Shown piece after piece: positions 1-19,133 of a stretch of DNA of 64,000 nucleotides. The stretch covers positions 124,001 through 188,000 of the forward strand of contig MU006109.1 in the NCBI GenBank assembly GCA_010093705.1. Reading direction: 5' to 3'. The stretch is from Patellaria atrata CBS 101060. Taxonomy: Eukaryota. The position numbers were made by a program, and so were the translations under genes. Position 1 is the stretch's first letter, and every line of letters starts with the position of its first letter. Below the pieces are notes generated by a model. That model did no database searches, was not told the DNA's origin, and saw only the letters and a list, made by a program, of their open reading frames with translations.

Positions 1-955
1 CGCCAGCTCTGCGGATGTCTTACTGGGGAAACTGCCTCTCGACTCATCATCCGTGCCGCCGGAGTCGACGAGACTGATCAACCCAACCCCGGCCAGTGAT
101 AGCAAGACCCCAATAACTTTTCCTCTAGTGAAGCGCTCTACCCCGATGACGGAGCCGAGGATCAACGTCCAGATCGAGGAGGTCGAGGAGAGGATCGTCG
201 AGGATGCGACGGTGGTGTAGGAAAGGCAAGCGGTCATGAAGTAGTTCGCGATGAACCAAAGGATGCTAAATCGGAGAGAGAGGTGTGCGGTTTCGGCTAG
301 CGTGAGACCCTTGGGGATGCTTCTGCTATGAGAGAGGATGGGGAGGGCCGAGAGGGAGTCATCCATGTTTATGGTGGTGGAGGGGGTGCTTCCGCGGAGA
401 CTGGTGGGTGGTTCGTCAGGTTTGAGGAAGGCCTCTGATTCTTCATTTTCGTCGGCAATCAGGTCGGATGAGGGAGAGGGGGCGTGAGGGGATGAGACTC
501 TGGTTTGTAGGAGGTCTTGAAATGATGATATCGAATGTCGATGTTTTTGTATGTGGCGGAGTAGCATAGGGATTAGAGGACCGATGAAGAAGAGGGAGTT
601 GAAGTAGGTCACGAAAAAGGGTTTAGAATATGTGTTATTGGCGAACACGCTCTGTGAATTTGACCATTAGCTCCGTAGTTTTCGCCGTTACGATTTATTA
701 TCTTCCTTCTCTCCATGTATCTGATGGACTCACACTCGCCAAAAAGTTACCTCCAGTCCATAAGAGGACCACTAGTAGCATCAAAGTAACGCCCAAAGAA
801 TGTCTAAAGCCCTTCTTCTTTGTAACGCTCTGCCATATTCTCCGCATCCGCCTTACTCTTTGAGACCCTATGTTTGAAGACCGCCATGAGTTCACATCCG
901 TTGTCGAATAAGTCCTCGATGGATACCCATCCTGTAGAGTAGGTCTTATCGGCAT
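1..955 (-). CDS. EamA/DMT-family (Thi74/YML018C-like) membrane transporter, 3' end runs off the window
   Basis: ATG at 955; exon 1 ...LLVVLLWTGGNFLAS, intron ~652-733 (GTGAG..ACAG), exon 2 SVFANNTYSKPFFVTYFNS...LWFIANYF...STSSIWTL, characteristic of this fungal DMT family. Confidence 0.85.
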
Positions 956-1579
956 TATGTATTTATGTTCTAGGTATTCACCGCGCAATATTTCTATTTG
1001 TTTTCGTACTAAGAGAGTCTCGTCGGGTTACCAGCGCGGTACTGGTCCTCCTTAGACATAGAGGATGCTGTGAGATAAACGAATGAGTGACATAGTAGTG
1101 TAGAATTCGGTTGCGCGAGATACAACGCTTCGGTGGGGGTGATCGGGTGAAATTGTGGTTAGAATAATGGTCGCAGAGATAAAACTAAGGTAGTTGAGAG
1201 GGGATTCGAGATGACGCGCATTTGCTCCAAGGTTCCGTCTGGTTTCCGAGCCCATCGCGCCAGACAAGGTATTCCTTACAACATCTACATGTCCACATTC
1301 ACTATTGATTGGAATACGAGTCGAAAGTACCGGCGTATAGTACAAGACTGTACACCGGTATGGGTAATTTGCGCGATACTTTCACAACTACTATCTACAG
1401 CGCCTACCAACTCCTGAAAACGAGGGATATACAAAACACCATCCGTTCGGCAGGACAGAAATCCCATCATTAGCGTACCCCTGTGTATGTAGTTTGCCCG
1501 GACGCCATTGCAATGATTGAAGCGAAGCCAAAAGAATCGAACCAAGCCAGCATGGTAGGAATCCTATGTTTGAAATGCA

Positions 1580-2484
1580 TCAGCAGGCGCAGCCATCCCT
1601 ATCATTATCTAAGTTGATGGGTATCGTCTCTGGAAAGTCGGAATTGAAGTCGTTGTTTGCCTCTTCTTGGGCGAGGGCTTGTCGTGCAATCACTGGGAAC
1701 CGGTCAGAAAATATGAACATTCCGTTGGAACAGGGTATTGTTACCTTCAAATGCTTGCTCAACATTAACAGCTTCCTTTGCGCTAGTCTCGAAGTATGGA
1801 ATTCCTCCTTTAGATTGACAGAAGGTCATAGCTCGTTTTGACGAGATCTTAACTTTGATCAGCTTTGGTCGAAAGGTACGATGAATGTGGCCTACCATGC
1901 GCTTGCTCTCTTCGACGTCGATCTTGTTGCCAAGGACAACCTAGCAATTTATCAGCTCGGTGTTCGGCGACGATAGAAATGCAATATTACAAATGGGAAG
2001 CTCTCAGGATCCATGGGACTGGCTTGTATCAAGAATTCATCCCGCCAGCTATCCAACGTATCAAAGCTCTTCGAGTTATTCACGTCATATACCAGAACGC
2101 AGCAATCTGCACCCCGATAGAAAGCTACCCCAAGGGATTGAAATCTTTCTTGCCCCGCAGTGTCCCATAGTTGCATTGTTACCAATCGATCGTCGACCAG
2201 GACTTCTTTGGTGAGGAAATCTGCGCCTATGGTTGCCTTGTAGCTTGCGCTGAACTTTTTGTTTACCTATATAGAGTCCCATGTTAGTGATCTGGGGCTA
2301 ATTATAGATACCGTAAACAAGATGTAAGAAGAGCGGTTGCTATACATATTGGTTCATCAAACTTGTCTTGCCTACACCGCTATCACCCAAAATAATAACC
2401 TGTGTCTCCGGGTTAGCTTCGCGACAAACTCTGAGTCCGGGCAACAACCAATACCTTCAGTAGAGTCTTCTTTCTTGATGCCAT
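1580..2484 (-). CDS. ypt7: Rab7/Ypt7 small GTPase (multi-exon)
   Basis: MASRRKTLLK start, [52 protein letters not shown]-terminal CAC prenylation motif. Confidence 0.96.
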
Positions 2485-3745
2485 CACAGTTGATATTGTT
2501 TCGGATCTCTGAGCCTTAAAGAACGGAAGGGAGAGCTCTAACAGGGAGTATATCCTCTGCTTGTCTTTCAGTTAGGTTGAGACGGCGACAAAAGCTATGA
2601 CCGTTTATGGGATTCGGGGGGTCGTGATAGATGGCCGAAAGACCGACGAAGAAGCTGTGCAGGGGCGGAGAGAATCAGGAGAGAGTAGAGACGTCCTGTA
2701 GCAAGAGATCGAGAGGTGAAGGTCTAAAGGTATTCGGAAGAGAATTAAGAAGTTCGAGGGGATGAGAAGCTGTTGCTGGTGTTGGTTTTGGACTTTGGAG
2801 CAGATGATGTACCCGCAACCCTTAGCGTTTCTTGGCACTGCCAATGTATATAATTCACCTTCACTTTCGTCTTTGTTTCTTCAAAGAAATCATGGAGATT
2901 TGATTTTCTGAGCGGTACAGTCACTCACACACCGGAGACTATAAACTATACGCTATACACCAAACTGAAGGCTTGAGCCCAAGGTCACACTAAGTTTGAA
3001 CGAGTATCACCTCAACATCCTCGTCTTCCTGATGTTGTATAGCACAGACGATATACACGATAAGCTGTAGTTTACGCGACTTTTCGCCGATTTACAACAT
3101 TCAAACAATTCGTTATCGATGTCGAGCATGCTATTATGAGGTCGAAAAGCATGTGTGCTGTTTCTGATTCCTGTCTAGCAAACTCTTTCCGTTTGACAAT
3201 TCAAACGCGTGATCATTCAAGTACACTTGATAATTTTTGAGGAAATCAGCATTCAAGGTGTAATATAGAGCAAGTCTAGGGTCGTTTAGATATCAATCAG
3301 GTATTCTCTGGCTTCGTAGAGCAGACTTTGCTTTAGGAAAATGTTAAAAGGAATATGATAATGCAACCACCCTCAAATACCTTCAAATTTCCATTGGAGT
3401 ATTTAGAAAGCTAAATCTGAAGTCAGGCAAACTAATCATTCAGTTGTATCTTTAACCAACCTCATATGTTATCATATCCGACTCCACAATAAGGCTTCCA
3501 GCTCCAGTTATCCGGCTTTACTTTGGATAATCCTCTTAGCAATAACATCAAGAGTATCAATCTTGTCTCGCGCGAAGCTTATTCCTGACGGCGGGCCACT
3601 GCATATCACCGTGCTATCCGCGTAGGAGAATCGCCCGTAGCTTTCTAATAGCCTAGTATAAGTAGTAGTGGAGGGAATCCAATGTTCCGGTAGGACTAGT
3701 TCTCCTTCTATAGTAAAAGACACATCGCAATATGTCGTTTTCCTT

Positions 3746-4434
3746 TCAAAAGGGTTTCGCGACCTTCCTCAACTCCGTCAAGCCAGTCTTAGGGTCTTTG
3801 AACTCTTTCCAACTAATCGGATACATGGTGTTCCCCGCTTCGCTGACCGCCATCACGACGCCCAATTCGTTACTGGCAGTGCTAATATAGTAGCTCGCCT
3901 GATCACCTAATGAAATCTATTCATACGAATGGTTAGCATAAGTAAAGGAATTGGTGATCAGAGATAACTTGCCACAATACCTCTAACCACATCCCCCACC
4001 CTAAATGAGTCTCCAATCTTTACCCTATCCTTCTCCGTCGCCCTTACGTCTTGCACCCTCACCTGTCCCTGAAAGCTGCCACTACATACGGTATCCCCAA
4101 CAACCAAGATCTCCACCGTAGCAGCTAACCTCGTTAATCTCGATACGCGCGCTAAAACTACACTATCCACCTCGGGCAAGATCGAGGTTCCCTTGTCCGC
4201 TGCACCTGTCGTTGGAGCTGACGGACGGGAAATTGAAATGGTTGGTAGGGGATTTTTCGGGGCAAGTCTGGGCAGTTTGGAAGAGCTTGCAAGGGTAGAA
4301 GGGGTGGAAAGAGATGGTGGGCCGAATAGAGAGGCGTGAATCTGGGAGTTTTCAACGTAAGTGCCTGGACCAGGAGTGTACTTGGTTGTTGGACCAAGAA
4401 GTTGACCAGGGAAAGCGAGCGTAGGAAGTGCCAT
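3746..4434 (-). CDS. csl4: RNA exosome cap subunit Csl4
   Basis: PGQLLG...GPGTY N-terminus, S1 domain with DVRATEKDRV...FRVGDVVRG, second exon ISLGDQASYY...ELGVV...ELRKVAKPF-stop. Confidence 0.92.
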
Positions 4435-5398
4435 AACTTTGTAAGGAGCGTATCAAGCTTGAATATGGAACTGGAATTGCAAGAAATACAGGTAGTTGTT
4501 CTGAGGATGATGTTCCTATCGGGGATGAGGACGTTGTCGCGTAAAATTACCCTTGGCGAGATTTTGCAGAGAAAAGGCCAAGCGGACACGAGCCGGGAGA
4601 GGTAATTTCAATATCTTTGTTTTAACGTTTCCCCCTTCTTTCAACCTCCTATCTGTGCAGTACATTTCACAATTGCAAAGATCCACCATTCAGTTATAGT
4701 TCTTTCTACTGCCACCTCATAGCGTACCATACACAGGAGCAGACAAAAAAAATCAATTTGTGATTGACCAATTGCTCAGATCGGAAGACCATCGATAGCC
4801 GATTAGATATTCCGTCTGCATTCTGCCTCATCTTTCGTCACAATCATTCTTGATACGATGCTTATCCGTACTCTTAGCACCTTGTTACCCAGGCTAAATT
4901 TTACTGGCATCCGATGAAATGTCTTGTGTCAGACACAGATGCTTGCACCGCACAAAAGGAAGAATCTTATTGGAGTAAAAGTTATAGTCCAGGTGCCCCC
5001 TACTAGTACAATATAAACCAAAGTCTTCCCCACACTCAAGAGGAGAAGTCCTCAGTCACATCAGTCAATTCCAGGAAGAGCTATGAGAACAATCTAGTTG
5101 GTTTTACAAAAGTGTACCTTCTAAGCCAGGGATTGATCATTGTTTGGATACCAAAACAGCAATGCTATTAATATATCTAAGACCTAGATTCCGGGTTTGG
5201 CGGCTCCGCAACAAGCGATCGTGTAGATATTGAACGTATATCTTTGTTGTGCGGAGTAATCTGTTGTTTTAAAGAGGGTAAAACCCGTCTCCAAGGTGTC
5301 ATATCGTAAAGGTGATCGTCCAAGAGTGTTCAAATTTCGGAAGGGGTTCTCCTCAAACAATCCATACTAGCTATTGTCCTCGTCTCAGTTCCTCAACA

Positions 5399-6272
5399 AT
5401 GGTCAAATCATACATTCCTCTGCTGGCATCATTCTCCAGCTCTGCTATCGCGGCCACGCTATATTTGGCGGGAGACTCTACGATGGCGAGATCGAGCAAT
5501 CCAAATATGCAAGGTTTGCTTCATGTCTTTCTCCTCAAGTTCAAGCACTCACGGCTTTTAAAGGTTGGGGTGAATATCTCCAATACTCTATGTCAATCCC
5601 CGTCGTTAATAACGCCATTGGGGGCCGGTCCGCCAGGAGTTTCACTCGCGAAGGTCGCTTTGATAGCATTGCTAAAAATGTCAAGTCGGGCGATTACGTA
5701 GTGATCGAGTTCGGGCACAACGATGGAGGTTCTCTATCCAATGATAATGGCCGAACAGACTGTCCAGGAACTGGAAATGAGACGTGCAAGACCACTTACA
5801 AGTAAACCATCCCCCTTTTTCCGTAAGCTTTTTCTCATGTTTGTGTAGTGGTGTCCAGGAAACGGTTCTCACCTTCCCTGCTTATCTTCAAAATGCCGCT
5901 AAAACGTACAAATCGAAAGGGGCTACGGTAATCATCAGCTCTCAAACTCCAAATAATCCCTGGGAAGGTGGAAAATTCACTTATGGACCAAACCGTTTTG
6001 TCACCATGGCACAGCTCGCTGCTGCCAATGCCCAGACAGACTACGTTGACCACGGCCAGTATACAGCTAATATTTTCCAGACAAAGGGGCTTGCAACTGT
6101 GAGTGGGTATTTTCCAACTGACCATACTCATACGAATGGTGCGGGAGCAGATGCAGTAGCCAAAGCGTTTGTGAAAGGCATTCTCTGTGGAAATAGCTCC
6201 TTAAAAAGCTTTGTGAAGAATTCAACAGAGTCTGTCGAAGGTGCTTGTATCGGTGGTGGTCGCAAGGTATAA
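5399..6272 (+). CDS. Secreted rhamnogalacturonan acetylesterase (CE12, SGNH/GDSL hydrolase), 2 introns
   Basis: Signal peptide, [38 protein letters not shown] catalytic motifs. Confidence 0.93.
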
Positions 6273-6883
6273 CTCCTTATCTAGCGGAAACTGTAAGTTG
6301 TCAATTAGTTAGATGTTACAAAGAGATATATTACTAATAATTGGGGTAGGCACCATGGGCAGTCAGTAGTATTCGCAAGGTCTATAAACTGTACTTTGCA
6401 GTATGAAGTGATTCTACGTTGTTCTGATCTTATTCCTCTTTGTGGTTTGATATCTCCCTAGGAAGGACAAACAGTACTTTGTGTCATCAAATGCGCAATT
6501 AGAGATTTCCTGATCGGTATGTTAATTGTGAGACGTTATTGCCGTTATTGCTAGAAGATGAAAATGAGATGATAATTAAACTTACAATTAGGTACTGTAA
6601 CTTCTAAAGATCCCTTGAAGCAAAAACAGGAGAACGGCTTGAAGCTCAAACTAGAAGCTAGGCTGTCAACACATATCATAATAATTCAACACTTACTTGG
6701 ATTATCAAATCAATGCCGAAACTGTTATTTTATCAATATTATTGATCGAGAAATTTTGTGCCTCCTAAAGGAAAACCTCCATATGTTTGAGAACACTTGA
6801 TGTAAAAGCAAAACCTACTTTATTCGGAAATAGATACCTCATCCATAGAACAAGGAAGACTTACCTTACCATGGCCTGCAGCT

Positions 6884-7801
6884 TCACGGTGCTAGCATCT
6901 GGACCGGTCGATATTTCTCTAAACGGAGGCTTATGTTCATAGGTAAGAACCTTGTGATTAGGAACTCCCACTGTCGACGGGTAAATTCGCTGTCAGAGGG
7001 CCGCTCCTCAACATGGTGGTTATACACGTCCCAGAAAGATCTTCCGTTCATCCTCGTCCTCTCCATCACTCGTCTTGACACCCTCCATGCATGACCAGGC
7101 AACCTCTCTGGATCTATGCGGCGCAAATTCTCGTTGTCTAATGGAACTACTTCCTCGTTGTTCTGCTTCCAGTCGTACAACACCACGATGCTCCTATTGT
7201 GCCTCAATGCATTGAACCAAGCGACGGTCAACATGGTCTTTAAGAAGTCCAACAATACATTATCATACGGATCTAGCATGTCAAAAGTTATCGCTGTATC
7301 AGTGACTGCGTTAGCAAGCTCTGCATGCAGTGTGAGGTAGTCCACATCGACGTGACCGCGCATATATGTATAGGTCGTTCCACGTCTAATCGAAGGAATG
7401 GTGCGTGTCGATCTGTCCATTGCGAACACACTCCTACGACGCCCCGCGGACTGTAAATCCGTTGGTATGGGAACCGGTGTCCATTCCACCGAGACGGTGG
7501 ATCCAGAAGATACGGTAGAGTAACGCCTGCTACCGGTCATCCTACCTGGTAACAGAGGCTCCCGACACTGTGGGCAAGTCTGGCTCTCTCCGTTCCTGGC
7601 CCAATGCATAATGCAAGTGTAACCGAAAATGTGTCCGCATGGAACGCATGTGGGGTGGTGATTCTCCGGGTTTTGAGGATCTTTGGGGTCGTAGTTGCTT
7701 GCGCAAATTGGACATTGCTGTGTAGTGAAATCTACATCATCGGGGTGGATATATCGAGGAAGAGATAGTTGGAATTGAGCGAGTTCCATGTTGTTCATCA
7801 T
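6884..7801 (-). CDS. RING-finger protein with uncharacterised C-terminal domain (intronless, 305 aa)
   Basis: CPIC...CVPCGHIFGYTCIMHW...TCPQCR RING pattern; TATA-like element upstream at ~7948-7958. Confidence 0.85.
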   Translation of the reverse strand: MMNNMELAQFQLSLPRYIHPDDVDFTTQQCPICASNYDPKDPQNPENHHPTCVPCGHIFGYTCIMHWARNGESQTCPQCREPLLPGRMTGSRRYSTVSSGSTVSVEWTPVPIPTDLQSAGRRRSVFAMDRSTRTIPSIRRGTTYTYMRGHVDVDYLTLHAELANAVTDTAITFDMLDPYDNVLLDFLKTMLTVAWFNALRHNRSIVVLYDWKQNNEEVVPLDNENLRRIDPERLPGHAWRVSRRVMERTRMNGRSFWDVYNHHVEERPSDSEFTRRQWEFLITRFLPMNISLRLEKYRPVQMLAP

Positions 7802-8190
7802 GTTGAAATGTGCTTTTGAGTAGTTGGTTTAGAAGATCTTCGGAAGCTCTTCGAAAGGTCTCTAGAAGGTCATTAGAATGTTTCTGTTTGGGTAAGTCTT
7901 TGAAGTGTTTCTGTTGCTAGCTTCAAAATTCTCGAATACTGACACCATTTATATAAAAGTTCGTAGGAGTAAATCGCAGCATTGAACACTGATATTGTGG
8001 GATTTGAGAAGAGCACTGCCGGCACAATGACTTCGCTTGAATTTATTCGCACAAAGCTTTGTTATGCATATTGCATACAATGCTAATCTCTTTGCTTCCC
8101 TTGTGTAAGTGGTCGGTCTCTCTTACTTCCCTCACAGAAGAGACCGCCTCATACTCATACCTGATAGCAAATCATAGTGATTGCTGTAGC

Positions 8191-8660
8191 CTATTCTAGT
8201 ACTACGCTCCAAAGGGAAAACTCATGCATTAGTGTCATATCCTGCGTCTTACTTACCATCTCTGATTGTCCAATGATGATTCCTAATCTGACTGAGAGCG
8301 TAACCTTGTCAGTGTTGGGAATGCATACGCTCTTTCCATCCATTAGCATTATTTGCATACATGGTTCCCCAAATGAGTGTCTTTTATTTCTTTGTTGGTT
8401 TTCCATTTCGTGTTGCCCAAGTATACTCAGTAACCCTTTGTCACAGGTATAATGACGAAAGCTCAGTTACTCCACCAATGCCTATTCCGGATTTTCCAAA
8501 TAAACTTACCATTTGAAGTCAGTGTGAGGTATACCGAGAACGAAACTGATCTTGGCTAGCAAAGGCTCTATGCATCCAAAACAGTCACGGCATGGATTCG
8601 TCTAATGTGAAGAGAGTTGAGCGCCGCAGGCAGTAAATGAGTGTTCAAGCTTGCATTCAA
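8191..8660 (-). pseudogene. Possible degraded ubiquitin-like (beta-grasp) gene remnant
   Basis: Manual translation gives IEPLLAKISFVLGIP (8527-8571) and MQIMLMDGKSVCIP; two exon-like segments each end in ATG|GTAAG; stops and frameshifts present. Confidence 0.25.
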
Positions 8661-9240
8661 ACCTTAATTGTACATACAAAGTGTAACATCTCTTCTAATG
8701 TGTCCTCTCCCTGATTCTTTCTGCAGTGATTATAAAGAGAACTCATCATAGCAGTATGTCGTATAAGAATACCGTTATTATGGTTTTTGAGTCAGAAACA
8801 TGTTTAACATTGTGAATTGCTGGTTCAGAGAATCGAATCAACACAACGTTTGGTCACTTTACTCATTCAGGGCACGTGTAAGCGGCTTCTCCCACAGGAA
8901 AAGTCGTGCTATAATCATTTGTGGTAGTTTTGGAGTCGTAATGCTATTCAGCACAGTCAGTCCCACCCCTATTTGCAGCATCGCAGTCATTTTCAAGTCA
9001 ATTTAGCACTACAGACTTGGTTCATTCGGTGGCAAACGTGGCATTCTCTGATACACTGGTGTCTATTCTCTAATTTAAATATACCCTTCTCCCCCTCTAA
9101 ATTTCATTCCAAATAAAAAGCAGCAAGATTATCTCTCTACCAAAACAGTTATCACCAGATCACTTATTATCATTTCAAAAATCCGTCTCATTTTTGCGCG
9201 ACCTTCATCAAAAACCTCGGGCACATCATCACACCAAAAG

Positions 9241-9843
9241 ATGGTATCGACCAGTAATGCCGCAAGCGGACAATGGGTCCCAGCCACAATGCCTCTATAT
9301 CTCGGCCTTTACTTACCGATTCTTGATGATCAACAAATCTAAACCGATCTGTCAATTGCCTTTTCTTCTGAGATTTGTCAGTGCAAGCAGTTCACCTGGG
9401 GTCAAAAAGAGATAGAAGCCTTGGACGTAGTCTCTCAAGAGGCTAGGCGTATTATCCTTGGCCCTAAGGAGCGTGATACATTGACCGCGATCCAGAATGA
9501 ATTCAAGAAGCATATGGATGAAGATGAATTAAACCCAGATGGAAGACCCGTATATTTCTAAATCCCCACTTTCTAGAATCACGACCGATTCCTAAGCTAT
9601 TTTAAACCTCCTATATTGGACAAAGATGGGAAAATAGCCCATACCGGACTGAACAACGGATACGGGGAAAGGGCTATCAACTATACTGAGTTTAAACGAG
9701 GGATGGTCCCATACCATTTGGAAAAACTTATACCTAGTAGAGAAGACAGTCTGACTGACGGTCAGTGGGATTTTATTATCAATACCCTGCACGTAAGGGT
9801 CTGCGAGCAGCTTGCCATGAGTGTGCACCAATCGGATCCCTAG
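9241..9843 (+). pseudogene. Disabled paralogue of the C-terminal domain of the flanking RING genes
   Basis: Single frame of ~200 codons from ATG 9241 to TAG 9843 with 3 in-frame stops (TAA 9340, TAA 9559, TAG 9574); ends LTDGQWDFIINTLHVRVCEQL; TATA-like site ~9075-9083. Confidence 0.7.
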
Positions 9844-10230
9844 ATTAGGCCTTTCAAGAAACCTGATCCTTAATATGAAATCTTCATATATGCCTAGGAA
9901 GTTTCATATTCTACTCTGGAACTCAAACGAGTCAGTGGTAAAATCTTTGGGTACTTACTTTCCTTTGCTGCTGCCGGCTTTCACGACACTCCCCAGTTAG
10001 AACCAGAGACATTTATTTCCTTCTTGTTTCTCTAGGATATCTTATGATAGAGAATGCTCTCTTAGCTGATTGGAGATCACAAAATCTGTATATCATACTA
10101 ATCTTCATTTGCGCTTTTGAGAATTACACTTCACATTCCCGTCTCTCCTAAACACACCATTATCTACTACTTCTTTTCCAACATGTATTACAGATCACAT
10201 TATCTTGTAAATTCACATCTTAAACATATC

Positions 10231-10288
10231 CCATTTCTCATATTCCATCTCTCATATTCCATCTCTCATATTCCACCTCTCATATTCC
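10231..10288. repeat. 14-bp minisatellite (CCATCTCTCATATT) x ~4
   Basis: Direct reading of tandem units with single substitutions. Confidence 0.9.
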
Positions 10289-11272
10289 CCTGTAACTTAG
10301 GTACTCAATACAAAAGACTGAAATAACATAACTATTCACCCAAACCATATCTATGATCATGTGTAAAATTGATAGTCATTCCCCACAGTGATTATATGTG
10401 CCATCCTAAACCTTTCACCCTCCGAAGATAAGTTCTTAGTATTCTACTCAAAGTGAGTTGCGGAAAATAAATGAGAAACCCCGATCCAGCACGGTTTTCA
10501 CCCCCATTAGATATTCTCTGTAACCTCTTTCTTCCAAGGAAGCTTCATATACCCCAACGCTCAGCACTTTACACCATCGTCAGGCGCTGTACACTTGGTG
10601 CACAGCCATTGTGATTCGTGAGATAACAAAATCTAGTCCTTTGTATGATATACGACCTCTTTATTTCCAAGTAAAGACTTCATTTATTGCAACTGTACGA
10701 TTTACTAGTAATCCACAGATGAGGGAGAATTATACATTTCTCCGTCTCGTACATTAGACAGTCGTTCAGTTCTCCTTCGCCATCAAATTTGGTACGTAAA
10801 TAACCCTGCATAGTTGTTATACCTGCTATGCAGAACATTTTGTGAGGTTATTCAGCCAACCCAACAATCCATCATTCCCTCATTTTTATGCACCTTAAGT
10901 GAAGTATAAGGCGTCTTCGTATCTGGGGGTATTATTCTGGGTAGTAGAAGAATATACGCGGCACATGGGTAATTTGTACATAGAAAACGGTATGAGGAAA
11001 AATCACACCATAGCTATGGGAAGAGAGCTAATATAATCTCGATAATGTTTGTAGTCTATGGGGAAGATGCTTGTATTGCAACTATAGACCTTTTGTGCAG
11101 ACCGAAGATGATAAATGTTGCCGATATGAAAAGGGGTATAGTACAATAAGAGAAAGCCCAATGAAATGAGGAAGTAAACACCCGAAGCCTTTTGGGGAAA
11201 ATAGCAGACTCCACGCCGTAGATAATAAACCAGAACTCTTAACCATCGTATTCCTCAGACTCCAAAGTTCCC

Positions 11273-12364
11273 TCAGTCCCTACCCATGATATAGAATCTC
11301 TCGCACAATCTGATCTTCAAGAACCTCATTATATACCTCCACTGGGAACCCAAAAGACCACCCTCCCCTCCCTCAGTCACTCTCTCGCTCAAGATGCCTG
11401 GGAGCGAATTATCCTCCCACACCAACCGACAGACACGAGCAACAGTCCTACCGCCCTCCACGAAGCACGGCTCGGCCCTCAGATCCGGAACGAGAAGCTT
11501 CCGGCCGGCATAGTCGATCAGCCTACGCTCCCAGCGCTTCTTGATGTCAGTGTACTCGGCCAAAACGGCTGCAGACGAGCAACCCTCTTCCCGGTTGTCG
11601 ACGGCGTATGCGAGACGACATTCCACCCATACGGCGTCGAATACACCTAGGAACGCGGACTGGATGCTATTGTCGATGCGGATTAGACGGCCACCTTCGA
11701 GGGGAACCTGGTCGACGACGAGAGTGGTGAAGTGTTTGGGTACGGGATGAATGGTGACAAGCGGAATCGGTCCTTGGAGGCGTGGGGGATGAGCTTGAGG
11801 AGGTTGCTGGGAGATAGAGTTGTGCGCTGCTCCTTGTTGAGAGCTTCCTCCTTGCTGAATAGGGGTCGCGGGAGGATACATTGGGCCTCCTTGGACGTTC
11901 CCGCCTTGTTGGATAGGGGCCGGAGGAAGATTTGGTGGCCCTTGTTGTGGGCCAGCTCCCTGTTGAATAGGGGCTGCGGAGAGGAGTAATAGTCCTTGGG
12001 GTACCTGTTGTGCTGGTTGGCGAATTTGGAGCCTACGACCAAGGAGGATACCGTAGCAATTCGGACATTGGTCAGTGCCGAATATGCTGATGTACTTCAC
12101 GCAGCAATACCTATGCATGAGACACATGTTTGCACATGAGCTCTCCATCGCGAAAAATTTGGTATAACCAAGCTGCTCTTCGAGGTCTATGGACAGAAAC
12201 GATTGACAAGCGTCAATTGCGTTCGGTCCCCTTAGATGATCAGGGGCCGAGGGATCTGGCTGCAGCGGGAGTGAACATATCGTGCAGAGGTGTGCTCCAA
12301 CTGGAATCATATTCGCAGCTCCAAGTCTGGTTATCCACATGCCGTCAATCCGGGGAGTAGTCAT
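11273..12364 (-). CDS. RING-like zinc-finger protein with Q/P-rich linker and uncharacterised C-terminal domain (intronless, 363 aa)
   Basis: CTIC...SCANMCLMHRYCC...QCPNC; three PIQQG repeats; ends GSQWRYIMRFLKIRLCERF. Confidence 0.75.
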   Translation of the reverse strand: MTTPRIDGMWITRLGAANMIPVGAHLCTICSLPLQPDPSAPDHLRGPNAIDACQSFLSIDLEEQLGYTKFFAMESSCANMCLMHRYCCVKYISIFGTDQCPNCYGILLGRRLQIRQPAQQVPQGLLLLSAAPIQQGAGPQQGPPNLPPAPIQQGGNVQGGPMYPPATPIQQGGSSQQGAAHNSISQQPPQAHPPRLQGPIPLVTIHPVPKHFTTLVVDQVPLEGGRLIRIDNSIQSAFLGVFDAVWVECRLAYAVDNREEGCSSAAVLAEYTDIKKRWERRLIDYAGRKLLVPDLRAEPCFVEGGRTVARVCRLVWEDNSLPGILSERVTEGGEGGLLGSQWRYIMRFLKIRLCERFYIMGRD

Positions 12365-12966
12365 TGTGAAGCTCCTGATATATGAGATACGTATGGAAGA
12401 TTCCGATGAGGTAGAAATATAATGATTGTATTAAGAGTTGGGATGCTTGATGGTGTTGATGGAGATTCTGAGTGCTGGTTGACAATTTGTGGAGCACGGT
12501 GTACGGAGAAAAAGATAAATAAACCTAAAAAAAGTCTGGAAGACGCTAAGAAGTGCCTAACTCAAAGCCTTAAATTGTTCAGGTGACGTTTGTTTTGCAC
12601 CGGCTGACTGTTTTGTAATGTAACAAACACCTACTCGGGTGAAGGACACGGTAGAAGGGGGGATGGGGAATAGAACTTGTGAAGGTGAAAGTGAATACAT
12701 GATTTGTCCCTCTCATTGGATACACGGTATAGGAAGCATCAAGTAAACCAGATAGAATGAACTATATTCGAGTAGAAAGCCGTTCGTCTCTCAATTAGAA
12801 CCCCATTCTCTTCTAGATATATCAAAATCAGTGGTCGATCCTTCTTCACACTTCTCCAATAACCCCTTCAGGAACACATTATCAGCTACAACTTGATAGA
12901 ACTGAGGGCAATGATTGCTATGACGGATACACAACAACATCTACACCTTCAGTTATCTAAGAGCAT

Positions 12967-13350
12967 ATGTTCTTCCCATTTTACCTGGGGCAACTCTCCT
13001 ATCTCCACGCAGAAACCCCAAGACCTTATCTGCTATTCGGGGTTGCGAGTAGATTCGTCCCAGTATTCCCTTGTTGTGACACTTGTATTTGTCTGTACGG
13101 CTGCTCTTATAATAGACTTGAGACTCGTATGTACGTGATGAAGGGGGTTGTACGACTAGCGTGGATGTATACGTACCCCTAGGTTTTATAGCCATTGGAG
13201 GGCAACAATGCTCAGCTTTGGGTTTTCGCCGATGAGGGTATAATAGGTATATAGCGACCGACGAGTGCTGAGCGTGACAACAGAAGAGATTGAGAATTTA
13301 TACAGACTGCTATCTGAACTCATCTTTGAGAAAAGCTTTGGGTACACAAT
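12967..13350 (+). pseudogene. Putative decayed member of the same C-terminal-domain family
   Basis: One frame read through stops: VMKGVVRLAWMY ... NRRD*EFIQTAI*THL*EKL, matching LKTMLTVAWFN ... TRRQWEFLITRFL of 6884-7801. Confidence 0.35.
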
Positions 13351-14559
13351 AGGTGGTCGAGCTCTCTTCTGAAGTTCTCCGTATTGGGGGCCAACACCTC
13401 TAAGATCTCGGAAGAGGTTAACCTTTGCAACTTAGAAGTCTGACAACAACGAACATGAACCTAACGCAACTATGATCTGGCACCGGTCTTTACAAAGAAG
13501 GACTATCCTACCCTGAAAGCTAGAAAAATCCCTCTATTTCCTCACGCTGCTCCGCGTTGCCATAGCACCCCCTCGTCAACACCTTGGCACAGAAGGTTTG
13601 CTGCGACTCTATACTACTCAGAGGAACAACGGTGCAAATACATACACAACTGAACTGAAGATATTTCCACCAGGTTATGTCTAGATCATACACACTGCTA
13701 AACTTGGGTCCTTCTTGAAATATAATGAAACTCCTCTAAAATGGATTGTGTCTTCCGCAATAAGCGAAATAAGCGCTTCTAATTCCTCAAGAGAATACTT
13801 ATCCACCATATCTGGATAGACGGGAGATTACTGACCACAAACATCAATACGGAACGACTTTGGACGAGCCTTTGCAGAAGGGCGACTAATCTTTGAACAA
13901 TGCTGACCGAGATCCCTTCCAGACACCTCGGCATAAGGTCCTTGCGCATCCTTCAAATGACTTCATAATATACACATCAACTACAACTCGTTAGACCGAG
14001 AGTGGCAATTATAAACCGGATAGGAAATGGACTCTAGAATACCTATATTTGAGAGATAACTGGTGTGTGAACGATCTTGAATTCTTCACCTTTGTAGACC
14101 TTTCTGTTAGAAAGACACTTTCACACCTCAATGATTCCCCAAAGAGTACGGAGCCGATAGATCAAGGATGATGATAGCGAGACTCCAATCTGGAATTGAA
14201 CTCAGTTCCGAGAAGCACCTTAGGTATGTTCGTTGATGAAGCAGCCCGTACGCTAACCCACCGTCGCACACTGCAAAGATACTTCTATGATTCGGAAACA
14301 CCATTGATGGGCCGCGAAAAGCCAGGTTTGACGATAGCTGATGTGGAAAGCGATGCAGAAGAGATTGAGTCGCCCTCTCCGAGAAGAAACTATCCAGATT
14401 ATGGTTCAAAATCAAATGATCCTCTTAAAACAGTTTCCCATATGGGCACAAGCTGCTAATGGGGACAATAAAATGGATACTAACGGAATACCAGTCGATA
14501 GAAACACAAAAAGCCGTTGCAAAACCAATACAAGCCGAACGTATACCTGACTGGCGGGA

Positions 14560-15400
14560 TGCTATCCTTTCATAAATGACAATTAGCCGAATCTCCCCTG
14601 TAGAACGCAGAAATAATGACCAGCTCCATTGTTTACCAAGGTTTTAAAGACTACGCGAACAGGAGCGACCTCCTTTGGACCCGAAGAAGTACACTAATGG
14701 TTACAGAGTAGATAAAACTAAGGACTTCAGACCACGACATCGGAAGCTTATATAAAACCGCGCTACACGTCCGTCATCGACAAGTGATCCTTTCTTACGG
14801 AAAAAGTTGACCAAGGTTCCGTTCCTGGACGGCAACAATGAGAAAAACTCCCATTCCTTGTTGGAGATAGTAGAGAGTGTGCGAGCGGAGAGGCTGATGT
14901 TGAAAACCGAGAAGTTATAATGGCGGCTACGACTCAATGAAACATGAAGTGACGAGAAATCATATACAAACGGTTCCTATATCCCCACCATCGAGAAGTG
15001 ATCCTTCTTTGCTAATACTGCTGGATGAAGTCCTCTCAAGCAGCCAAAATAATAAGAAACAACTATATTGTATATTGGGAGGAATAGCAGATATGTGAAC
15101 AGGCAAGATGGATCCAATCTAGGCCGTTTCAGGCGAAATGCTAACACCTAGAGTTCGATAGAACTGAAAGTAACGATCGCGAAAGCCCTATACACATTCG
15201 ACTATACAACTTATATTAGCGAACGACGCTTCCTCTACAACGAAAAATACTGAACGGACCTCTTTCTGGAGACTCGTATCAATAAGGGAATCTCTTTAAA
15301 TATTAGAGAGTAGAGGACTTGAAGACTGTGGAGAAGGATTGTAGAACCTGAAGCGTAATAATGACGGTTAGAACTCCAAAGACTACAAGCAACTGCCGTG
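14560..15400 (+). repeat. Degenerate ~215-230 bp tandem repeat, probably a decayed repeat-protein gene
   Basis: 14771-14796 vs 14985-15010 match at 21/26 nt; weaker units begin near 14563 and 15228. Confidence 0.45.
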
Positions 15401-16036
15401 AAGAGGCATACGGAGCGAATTCTATCTCCTCACATCGAAATCAGAGATTTGCGAACTACCAATGGCGAGCGAACCCGTCTCGGACATTGCGGAAAAGAGT
15501 GATTACCGCTCTGCTTCATAAGCGACCGGTTACGAAAGAGCAGAGCGAAAGCGACGATGAGAAACTGCAATCCATAGAAGGCTATCGACAACCATGAAGG
15601 AGAAAGTCTTGTCTATCTCTTGCCCTAATCGACTTCAGGGGCGAAAGAAATTGAACCAGGGAGACTTCTTCAACAATTTGTAGTACCGAGAATAGGGGAC
15701 TAGCATAAGAATGACATCAAGATACAAAACGGAACTCAGGCCGTAGCTTAGAGAAAGATAATAGATAAGTCCATTGTCGATCGAACCCTTTTGCAACTCT
15801 ATAATCGTATGATGAGAAGATTCTTCTTTCAAAGCTCAAAGACGAAACAACTGGTTGAAAAAATGAGGACTGAGTCGATGACTGCAAAGAGATACAAAAT
15901 AAAGGTATGTTCCATGTCTTCAGAATTCTCTAATTAAATATTTTCAAAAACCCCCCAGGAGAATGCAGGTATACTTTTTCCGAACCATCCGAAATACTCC
16001 ACACTATGAAACTCTGTACCACATTCTCTGGATCTC

Positions 16037-17739
16037 CTATAACCTCAAGATCAGCTCACTCGCCCTCTCGGCGGCAACCATGATCCCAAACTGCGGATTC
16101 ACACTCAGCGGCGGAACGATACTCCCATCGACAACAAAGATATTCCTCGTGCCAATAACCTTCGTATTCTCATCTACGCACTTCCCAAACCTACAACTTG
16201 ACGACCAATGGTTGACCTGGCCGACTGCGTAGGCCGAAGGAGTGGTGATATATTCTACAATCTCAGCATGGGTAGCGTTCTGGGCAATGTTGAGCGGCGT
16301 GAGGGAAGACGCGGGCAGAGCATCGAAGATGGAGCGGATGAAAGTCGCGATATCTTGGGCATCGCGTGGGTGGCTGTAGTAGGTCTCTTGTGAGGGGCCG
16401 GGGACGAAATTCTCGTCAAGTTGGACGCGGCCGGTGGATTTGAGGCCAGACGTTCCATAGATATTGAGGGTAATGGTATGGTTAGATGTGTATTCGTTGT
16501 ATCCGGCTGTATCAATTGTCCCTTGGAGTCCGACGACGTCGCCATTTGAGTGCTTAATAGTATTGAAGAACGCGCTAGTTTGGGATGCGAAAGTATAGGG
16601 ACCGGCTCTGCGCTCAACATATGGTTCTGCCTCCTCCGGGACGGGATCGTCATAACTATGAACAAAGGAAGTGATTTCGGGGCTTTCCAGTTCGATAAAA
16701 GTATTCGGGTTATCGAACAATTTGTCTCCAACAGCAGTGTTGTTGATCCAGGAGGAAGGAGAGAGATCATCGAGCAATCCAGCTGCAGCAATTTTATTAA
16801 GAACTCCTGGATCACCTATCCCGGAAAGCATCAATAGCTGTGGACTGAACAATGCGCCACCGCTGAGAATGACACGGCCATTGCGACGAAGCTTGTAAGT
16901 TTTCTCTACGTTATTTGAGACGGTAAGAACTCCAGTTGCTCTATCTCCGCTCCTCAAAACCCTTTTGACCCGTGTGCCACTCTTCAGTTGGAAGCAACTG
17001 CGCTTTAAGGCACTCTGTAGGTACGTCTTAACTGGACCACCCCTTTGTCCATTGTGATAATTCCAAATAGGACGGCCAAATACTTTCGTCTTGCGATCCG
17101 CATTACGATTCAAGTCGACTTGGGAAAAGCCGGCACCTTCGACGATCCACTCTCTCGCAGCATCATATCCCGATTGGTAATATCTTATATGGTCACTGGA
17201 GGGGTTGTCGGTAGAAGATTGTCTGGAATAGACCTTGGCCGTTGCTCGTTCCATGTCTGCGGACTTCCATTTTCTGGGGTAGTATAAGTCGTAGTCTGAA
17301 GCTGGAGGTTCGAAGAAAAGGCCTGCGTTAATGGCAGTGTTTCCTCCAATCGTACAGCCACCAAAGGCGTTCAATAGAGTTCCACACGTTAGATTACCTT
17401 GGTCCGCGAAAATCGATTTATAGAGGCCCGGTACGTCCACACGGCTCAAATTAGTTCCTTCCAGCCATTCGGGCCTTTGTGTTCCACCGGTAATGCCATA
17501 TGATGGACCACCACCTTCTAAGAGCAGAGTTCTCTTTCCAGCCTGACTCAGCCTATCTGCAACTATAATCCCGGCGGCACCGGCACCAACGACTTCAACA
17601 ATTAGCACTCATATAATAAGGTGAGAGGGTTTTAATCACCTATAGCGTCCCAGGCATCTTCGCTGCGATCACTGATAGCGGGACTCGCAGCTACCAATGC
17701 AGCTGTTACTAGTGCCAGGAAGAGCTTGGAATTTACCAT
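16037..17739 (-). CDS. Secreted GMC oxidoreductase, cellobiose dehydrogenase-like flavodomain (AA3_1) without cytochrome domain
   Basis: Signal peptide MVNSKLFLALVTAALVAA, one intron, VVGAGAAG FAD motif, LSRVDVPGLY, GGNTAINAGL, NHWSSSC and VNP catalytic His/Asn. Confidence 0.9.
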
Positions 17740-19133
17740 CATACCTAAGGAAGAGGGGACAAAAAAGCGAGTAGGACGGGGTCAAGCTTTGCGTTTCTCA
17801 GAGGGAGGGGGCCGTATTATTAAGTCTCATCTTGCTTGTTCCCTATATCGGGATCAATGGGCAATACTCTCGTCGCGTGCTTCTAAATTAAAGTTAGATG
17901 AGATCGCCGCAGGAACGGGCGCAGAATAGAGCATAGAGCTTCAGCTAGGCCTTTGCGAGTGCCACTGAATGGCCGTGGTTGAGCTCAAGAGGGTTTATTT
18001 TGGGCCCCAAAGTTGTCGTACAACATGGTGATCGATGCTGACGAAGACTGTAAGGGGCGAATTCACGGTACAAATTGAATTTGAACCCCTCGATAGATGC
18101 ACGGTCGTGTTCAAATGCTTGCCTGGATGAAGGTGCTGGTAACCATGGCGTCCATCAGCCCAGCGGAAGAGCTAGACGATAGGCTGAAAGGCTCGAGAGC
18201 CTTATGCTGACGAACGCATCCGGAAAGTTGTGGCTTGTTGCGATGAGAGCTTTGAGCTCCACATGTGCGGTCAGCCCAGCTAGATCTTCAAAAAAACACG
18301 AGAATCATTCCCTTCCATCCAAGATGCTCAGCTCAGCCAGAGGAAGCATACTCTTTTGCTTATGTGGTGTAATCACACCATTACCAAACCGCAACGAGGA
18401 GATCAGGTCATCAGGAGCAGTTGGGACAACGGTACAGTAATGCTTCAGCTGCTCGTGATAATCCCGTGACACTCATTTTCTTCGTTCACAAACTTCGAAT
18501 CCATCAAATCTCCCGTTTTCAGATCAAATTTGAACTGTCTCATCCTTTCCCGCAACCCGCATGCAGATCATTCGCATGCCGGGACCAGACGGTCAGGGCC
18601 CCGGTTGCCTTACGGCTGAACTGAGTTCAGTGTGTCCATTACCGGTATCTGTGGGCGCTAAATATCAATGAAACGTACATCTGATGACCAGGGAATATTT
18701 ATCCTCCGATCAGCTCCAGTTCTTCAAGGTTACAAATAGAAGCATCCATGGGTCTAATTGCTGCACTTTGAGAATGGGTAAGCAAGGCTTTCAGGAAATC
18801 GACTACCCCGTACTCCGTACAGTGAGAAGGTCTGATTATGCTTTTCTTGGCACCGTTGGGCTTCCCGTCCCGCCTTCATCCGCTGTACCATACCTGAGTG
18901 TGCCCCTGAACCATGAACCTCAATCGCATTATTGCATGAGTATCCGTTCGGAGGGTGTTTATGACTTTGTGTCTTAAGAGTAGAAAGCAGTTAATAAGGG
19001 ATCGTTATCTACGGACTGTTCAATTCATTCTTTTAGGCTACCTATTCGTCAAAACGAACATGCGTTATGCTATCTATGCAACGAAACCATCGTTAATCAT
19101 ACCATCATTCCTTCTGTGCCGATACAGCACAAC

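Follow-up and report, generated by a model that had tools for sequence, protein, structure and literature searches.

An apparently undescribed C-terminal domain in a candidate family of fungal RING genes from Patellaria atrata CBS 101060

Among the described systems closest to the genes considered here, San1 carries a glycine at the position of the fifth RING metal ligand and is yet reported to be active (PMC4192666), and lysine-free regions are described as guarding it from self-degradation (PMC13696103). RING genes have also been reported as expanded in mushroom-forming fungi (PMC10282164), so that lineage-specific RING turnover is not in itself unusual. Here, we analysed 64,000 nucleotides of Patellaria atrata CBS 101060 (the window; contig MU006109.1, C21 hereafter, positions 124001-188000), which belong to an assembly of 28.7 Mb in 127 contigs with spliced fungal genes. 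The window contains two intronless open reading frames (ORFs) with RING or RING-like N-termini, A (protein P0001) and B (P0002), and a broken frame, C (Table 1). An earlier sequence-only reading had taken them for a cluster of RING genes and decayed paralogues sharing an unrecognised C-terminal domain.

The C-terminal domain and its copies in the genome

Examination of the reading frames confirmed that A and B are intact single-frame ORFs with the end motifs quoted in the sequence-only reading. Sequences identical to both (305 and 363 aa) are present as proteins in public collections, which implies that intronless gene models exist for them. Frame C also bears its quoted motif, and its homology to B was clear (local score z 6.7-7.2, 0/500 shuffles). 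Likewise, a search with the last 175 residues of B led to P0003, an intact RING gene of contig C4 (E 6.8e-7), and to a relic on contig C6 (E 0.0011), and the last piece of C found a second C6 relic, 3 kb from the first. P0003 is 273 aa long and displays a RING over the Pfam cut-off, starting at residue 24 and with Gly at ligand 5. Both C6 relics (C6a and C6b) are frameshifted, and the decayed Cys/His patterns upstream of them scored 47.0 and 41.6 against the RING profile, near background (95th percentile of the window 43.2). Low-complexity, internally repetitive open frames lie between these two relics (L059:6435-7061).

In a leave-one-out analysis without A, the scores of B, P0003, C, C6a and C6b were 46.9, 41.1, 25.1, 33.2 and 24.5 bits, respectively, each being reached by 0/2000 shuffles. 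Domain identities among copies were 16-29%, and the pairs B-C6a and C-C6b displayed pairwise z values of 15.9 and 11.0. At the sequence level, a tail domain of ~150 residues common to these five copies is firmly supported. The match between B and C that had been proposed further upstream was recovered in part: MAFFT alignments placed it roughly in register, but pairwise matches covered the last ~75 residues only. Counting A, whose membership is weighed below, three intact (A, B, P0003) and three broken copies (C, C6a, C6b) were found on contigs C21, C4 and C6, in agreement with the birth and death invoked earlier. This count is a lower bound (at least six copies), since the genome search scores best candidates only and takes no alignment; further single-protein searches of the genome added no copy.

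Word-indexed homologue searches among 5.8 billion proteins, restricted to lengths near that of the query and made with the A tail, whole B and the P0003 tail, returned only the queries. A 7-row profile compared with 1.84 billion representative proteins (E up to 0.001) gave four hits. Three were P0001-P0003, all part of the searching profile, and the fourth was a plant protein (P0004, E 2.8e-4) that was rejected as a chance match (internal duplication, acidic low complexity); with only copies from its own genome left, the family was lineage-restricted at this level, as had been claimed. None of the seven alignment members exceeded a Pfam cut-off over the tail (best E 0.09), nothing clear was found with the tail among PDB sequences or in the ESM Atlas, and no relative was recorded for the B tail in metagenome contigs or for the A tail in viral contigs. 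A literature search, with most subscription journals and supplements (where gene ids could be) outside its scope, gave no description of the RING family.

The AlphaFold model of the P0003 domain displayed five helices (29-45, 52-71, 94-102, 107-114 and 125-147), with a predicted local distance difference test (pLDDT) of 54.7 and a predicted template modelling score of 0.47; a conserved QW motif opens the last helix. A single-sequence model of the A tail reached a pLDDT of 38. The best structural match of the P0003 domain among 48161 chains (Z 6.0, root-mean-square deviation 5.7, 118 aligned residues) lies, for a model of pLDDT 54.7, in the chance range for helical bundles, and Foldseek with the same model found nothing under E 0.001 in PDB and BFVD. 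Such an absence of sequence or fold match does not imply a new fold. The tail appears to be a genuine undescribed domain, and this part of the sequence-only reading stood, firmly so for five copies.

Weighing a proposed family of RING ligases

The explanation that we favour, with somewhat better than even confidence, is that these are single-chain RING E3 ubiquitin ligases from a small and old family, restricted to its lineage, and that their helical tail would bind a substrate or a partner. From established RING biology, the RING would bind a ubiquitin-charged E2 enzyme; the tail, judging from its position and conservation only, may bind either another copy as partner or a substrate, which the predicted ligase would then ubiquitylate. 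The RING of A exceeded the cut-offs of Pfam zf-RING_2 (35.6 bits, cut-off 27.3) and zf-C3HC4 (25.6, cut-off 21). It conserves seven of the eight ligands and has Gly in place of the fifth, which is the San1-type or RING-G arrangement, and it retains Trp four places after ligand 6, a residue given as common in RING-H2 and RING-v in PMC8601054. In B, the candidate ligands give a C4HC3 pattern with RING-H2-like spacing and a 46-residue loop between C30 and C77, an exact fit to no row of the flax table in PMC8601054. With this aberrant RING, B may act as an adaptor or as a ligase of lower activity. Its N-terminus and family domain are joined by a likely disordered linker (11765-12030), composed of imperfect PIQQG repeats with a high content of Gln, Pro and Gly, that A and P0003 do not have. 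The residue after the last Cys, which we take to be the linchpin for E2-ubiquitin activation, is Arg in A, Lys in P0003 and Tyr in B. Both A and B are poor in lysine (4/305, binomial P 0.004, and 7/363, P 0.013; reference 4.2%, from the 11 long ORFs of the window), with longest lysine-free runs of 147 and 119 residues, and these lysine-poor bodies might limit self-ubiquitylation. Several other RING tails of the genome are also lysine-poor, so that low lysine fits ligases in general.

A number of results weigh against this explanation. P0003 is not lysine-poor (13/273, P 0.73), and the model of its domain, of modest confidence, was built on the 7-row alignment that includes A. The tree of tail copies (see below) carries a long-branch warning. 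The N-terminus of B matched no Pfam RING model at E up to 1, and a model built from 21 RINGs of its own genome gave it 0.1 bits (477/2000 shuffles as high). What makes B RING-like is therefore only its pattern and its position within a homologous architecture, and of the RING N-termini of different types described earlier, that of A was upheld by Pfam but that of B remained a pattern; the 46-residue loop may explain this missing profile score. The link of A to the family is thin as well. In the leave-one-out analysis its whole tail scored 6.8 bits (2/2000 shuffles), and hhalign gave a probability of 2-9% over 18 columns. In a six-frame scan its domain reached 4.4 bits, whereas unrelated DNA (355 kb) gave up to 5.8 bits, and in a frameshift-aware profile scan A was at background level.

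It is on this link that the best-surviving rival bears, namely that A, a San1-type RING gene, is unrelated to the family and came by its QW motif through convergence or chance. The window would then have a single intact member, B, beside the pseudogene C. Pairwise z values of A were 0.5-1.7 to B, P0003, C and C6a, its tail searched in its own genome found only itself, and in the frameshift-aware scan A was tied with a QW motif at 15726-15782 that is due to chance (45.1 vs 46.4). Three other Gly-5 RING genes (L002 and L004 on contig C1, L008 on C3) are long single-frame ORFs, and their tails show no relation to one another or to the family; judging from these sequences, San1-type RINGs with orphan tails occur more widely in the genome. 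The Gly-5 type was displayed by 5 of the 21 RING-pattern ORFs examined.

Yet the last 63 residues of A reached 9.1 bits against the family profile, a score attained by 0/2000 shuffles and by none of 4291 control windows from 295 control ORFs (best control 7.9). The 140 residues before the QW motif scored -1.8 bits, this split into 63 + 140 residues having been chosen after the motif was seen. Among 16 RING tails outside the model, that of A was the top scorer (6.4 bits, next 2.2); 17 tails were long enough in the 21 RING ORFs, whose loci include 30/60 RING matches. A also displayed a z of 3.8 to C6b, and its motif occurs at the same place as in P0003, behind the same RING type and 1.4 kb from C. 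The C-terminal motif said to be common to A and B was recovered through the profile, over the last ~60 residues of A, but not in their direct comparison (z 0.7). On these sequence comparisons, A is probably a distant member of the family, and we consider its independent origin unlikely.

History, turnover and other explanations

In the tree, C and C6b were joined at 97/95, apart from B, P0003 and C6a, in agreement with the pairwise z values; the family would have divided early, with B-like copies on one branch and C-like copies on the other. This locus and that on C6 have one copy per branch each, pointing to the duplication of an old pair; three of the four resulting copies would then have decayed, if this order of events is right. 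A tree of the RINGs of this genome's copies gave no resolved groupings. Judging from the sequences, turnover is slow and old across three contigs, without a young island. The sequence-only reading had instead proposed rapid diversification within an island of ~9.5 kb. The first part, whether as fast or as recent change, was not supported, given domain identities of 16-29% and the absence of similarity at the DNA level; the second matches the interval of about 9.8 kb (6273-16036) between the flanking esterase and oxidoreductase genes, but the family extends over C21, C6 and C4. Other close RING pairs of the genome were recorded at C14:517930-518807 (one RING with Asp at ligand 5) and C1:3440256-3441833 (second match with an internal stop).

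The same reading had seen in this turnover the pattern of a defence, allorecognition or conflict system, in which the tail would recognise a protein that is foreign or non-self, leading to its destruction or to signalling through the RING, like antiviral TRIM ligases. Half of the found copies are indeed broken, RING types differ and the genes are intronless orphans, and animal immune RING families are described as evolving likewise (PMC3228819, PMC2657112). Yet only six copies were found, without close duplicates, and birth and death alone is no proof of conflict. Compared with the whole genome at the DNA level, the interval 6273-16036 matched only itself, without any repeat elsewhere; it displayed no signal of repeat-induced point mutation (RIP; composite index at or below zero throughout) and no Pfam transposon domain. 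No NLR, HET or other effector domain occurred in the interval, nor did NOD, HET, HeLo, gasdermin or repeat sensor Pfam families in A, B and 12 read-through frames of the interval. The claim was not supported, and we regard such a system as improbable. Its most far-reaching form, with the tail as a new helical recognition fold in a fungal analogue of TRIM-like immune ligases, divergent sensors joined to RING variants, B (aberrant RING) and C (no RING) as adaptors or decoys, and turnover driven by a conflict with viruses or non-self, is an analogy that we consider very doubtful; if the tail were truly a non-self sensor, filamentous fungi would gain a class of immune ligases.

Decidedly improbable, too, are near-neutral relics of old RING-gene duplications in the course of being lost, the intact copies having no important function. 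Three of the six copies are broken, no relatives were found outside this genome and the codon score of A is weak (-0.05). However, A, B and P0003 remained open over 273-363 codons despite such low domain identity, and A and P0003 retained their metal ligands and the hydrophobic RING positions.

Frame C displays a codon score of +0.03, compared with a background of -0.11 +/- 0.06. Its stops (TAA at 9340 and 9559, TAG at 9574) are all of the kinds that C-to-T changes in Gln codons would yield; RIP indices are not raised. The last two fall within a 27-base in-frame GT..AG stretch (9550-9576), where C has an insertion relative to B and P0003. A short plus-strand sequence, KHV*HCE (about 8795-8830), some 430 bases upstream of C, resembles the middle of a RING-H2 and is outside the top RING profile scores. 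A 14-base tandem repeat (4.6 copies, 10225-10288) lies between C and B. That C is a live gene, its stops removed by splicing, read-through or editing, and a RING-less partner of A and B, is highly improbable: it has no frameshift in 200 codons, a coding-like composition, a TATA-like box 165 bases upstream and two stops inside the GT..AG stretch, but these 27 bases are fewer than in usual fungal introns and probably too few for an intron, the first stop lies in sequence aligning with the domain, and no C-derived protein occurred in the profile search.

The cluster had also been extended to a decayed paralogue ending at 14080. No RING or tail remnant was detected in 12365-16036, which leaves this end coordinate unsupported. 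A fourth copy sought on both strands of 13000-14200 by frameshift-aware alignment was rejected (z -0.8 to 0.3 vs A, B and P0003; the controls C, C6a and C6b reached 4.7-11.1 vs B and P0003). Between 13.0 and 14.2 kb, RING and tail profiles were near the window median and Pfam found nothing in six read-through frames. The plus strand of 13150-15900 displays a patchy coding-like composition in shifting frames, with an AT skew of +0.19 to +0.21 in 14-16 kb (A-rich). It probably represents the remains of a gene from outside the RING family, without Pfam match or genome paralogue for the piece examined.

The locus and its comparison with known systems

The features of the locus are collected in Table 1. 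The flanking esterase and oxidoreductase would belong to CE12 and AA3_1, respectively, by the labels of the sequence-only reading. Beyond them (1-4500 and 18000-60000), Pfam named exosome CSL4, PLAC8, DUF3425 and ferric reductase/NADPH oxidase-type genes, and other translations presumably represent a Rab GTPase, CAND1, EF-Tu and glycosidase-like ORFs. Among esterase loci in metagenomes, not one (0/34) had CSL4, the GMC gene, CAND1, A, B or C. Contigs from two DNA runs of one sample displayed no differing letters, gaps or joints over 4000-18000; since these runs may be the source of the assembly, this agreement guards only against assembly slips.

Table 1. Coordinates of the RING-type ORFs, frame C and flanking genes in the window
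Feature	Position	Strand	Remarks
GDSL-type esterase (left flank)	5400..6272	+	Pfam Lipase_GDSL: one exon under cut-off, other exon over
ORF A (P0001), RING and orphan C-terminal region, 305 aa, intronless	6884..7801	-	Single open frame
Last 63 residues of A with QW motif	6887..7075	-	Sole part of A scoring against family profile
RING of A: C30 C33 C55 H57 G60 C63 C76 C79; W67, R80	7565..7714	-	Pfam zf-RING_2
Frame C, broken family member	9241..9843	+	Three in-frame stops, no frameshift; no detectable RING
ORF B (P0002), Cys/His domain, Gln/Pro/Gly linker and family domain, 363 aa, intronless	11273..12364	-	Single open frame
Family domain of B, about 155 residues	11276..11740	-	Leave-one-out 46.9 bits; BLASTP to P0003 E 2e-14
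RING-like C4HC3 pattern of B: C27 C30 C77 C81 H84 C87 C100 C103; Y91, Y104	12056..12286	-	Pattern reading
GMC oxidoreductase (right flank)	16037..17608	-	Pfam GMC_oxred_N and GMC_oxred_C over cut-off

If the ligase reading is right, the fungal ubiquitin system would gain an undescribed domain and RING architecture, with San1-type RINGs joined to a tail predicted to be folded, in place of disordered arms. Many fungal genomes probably hold small orphan families of this kind, and the gain is modest since this one comes from a single genome.

With the TRIM and finTRIM ligases of animals (PMC3228819, PMC2657112), the family shares a RING followed by a variable C-terminal domain, clustered copies and pseudogenes. 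It differs by the absence of any B-box, coiled coil or SPRY match and by comprising six old copies found here, not dozens of young ones. B resembles RING-v (C4HC3) in that ligands 4 and 5 are Cys and His, respectively, and in that the fourth residue after ligand 6 is aromatic. In contrast, its ligands 4 and 5 are separated by 2 residues, where 4 or 7 are given in PMC8601054, its loop 1 has 46 residues instead of the 8-33 given there, and it had no Pfam RINGv match. A and P0003 display the ligand order of the RING-G type of plant surveys, C-x2-C..C-x-H-x2-G-x2-C..C-x2-C in PMC8601054. Their loop 1 is longer, with 21 (A) and 23 residues (P0003) against 11-16 in the flax table of that paper, and no domain outside the RING was found in common with that type.

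The likeness to San1 is observed at two levels, Gly at the fifth ligand in A and P0003 (as reported for San1 in PMC4192666) and, in A and B, a low lysine content in regions other than the RING (as in the account of PMC13696103). The architectures differ: the RING of San1 is central, between disordered substrate-binding arms, whereas that of A and P0003 is N-terminal, starting at residues 30 and 24, respectively, and precedes a domain that bears a conserved motif and is predicted to be helical.

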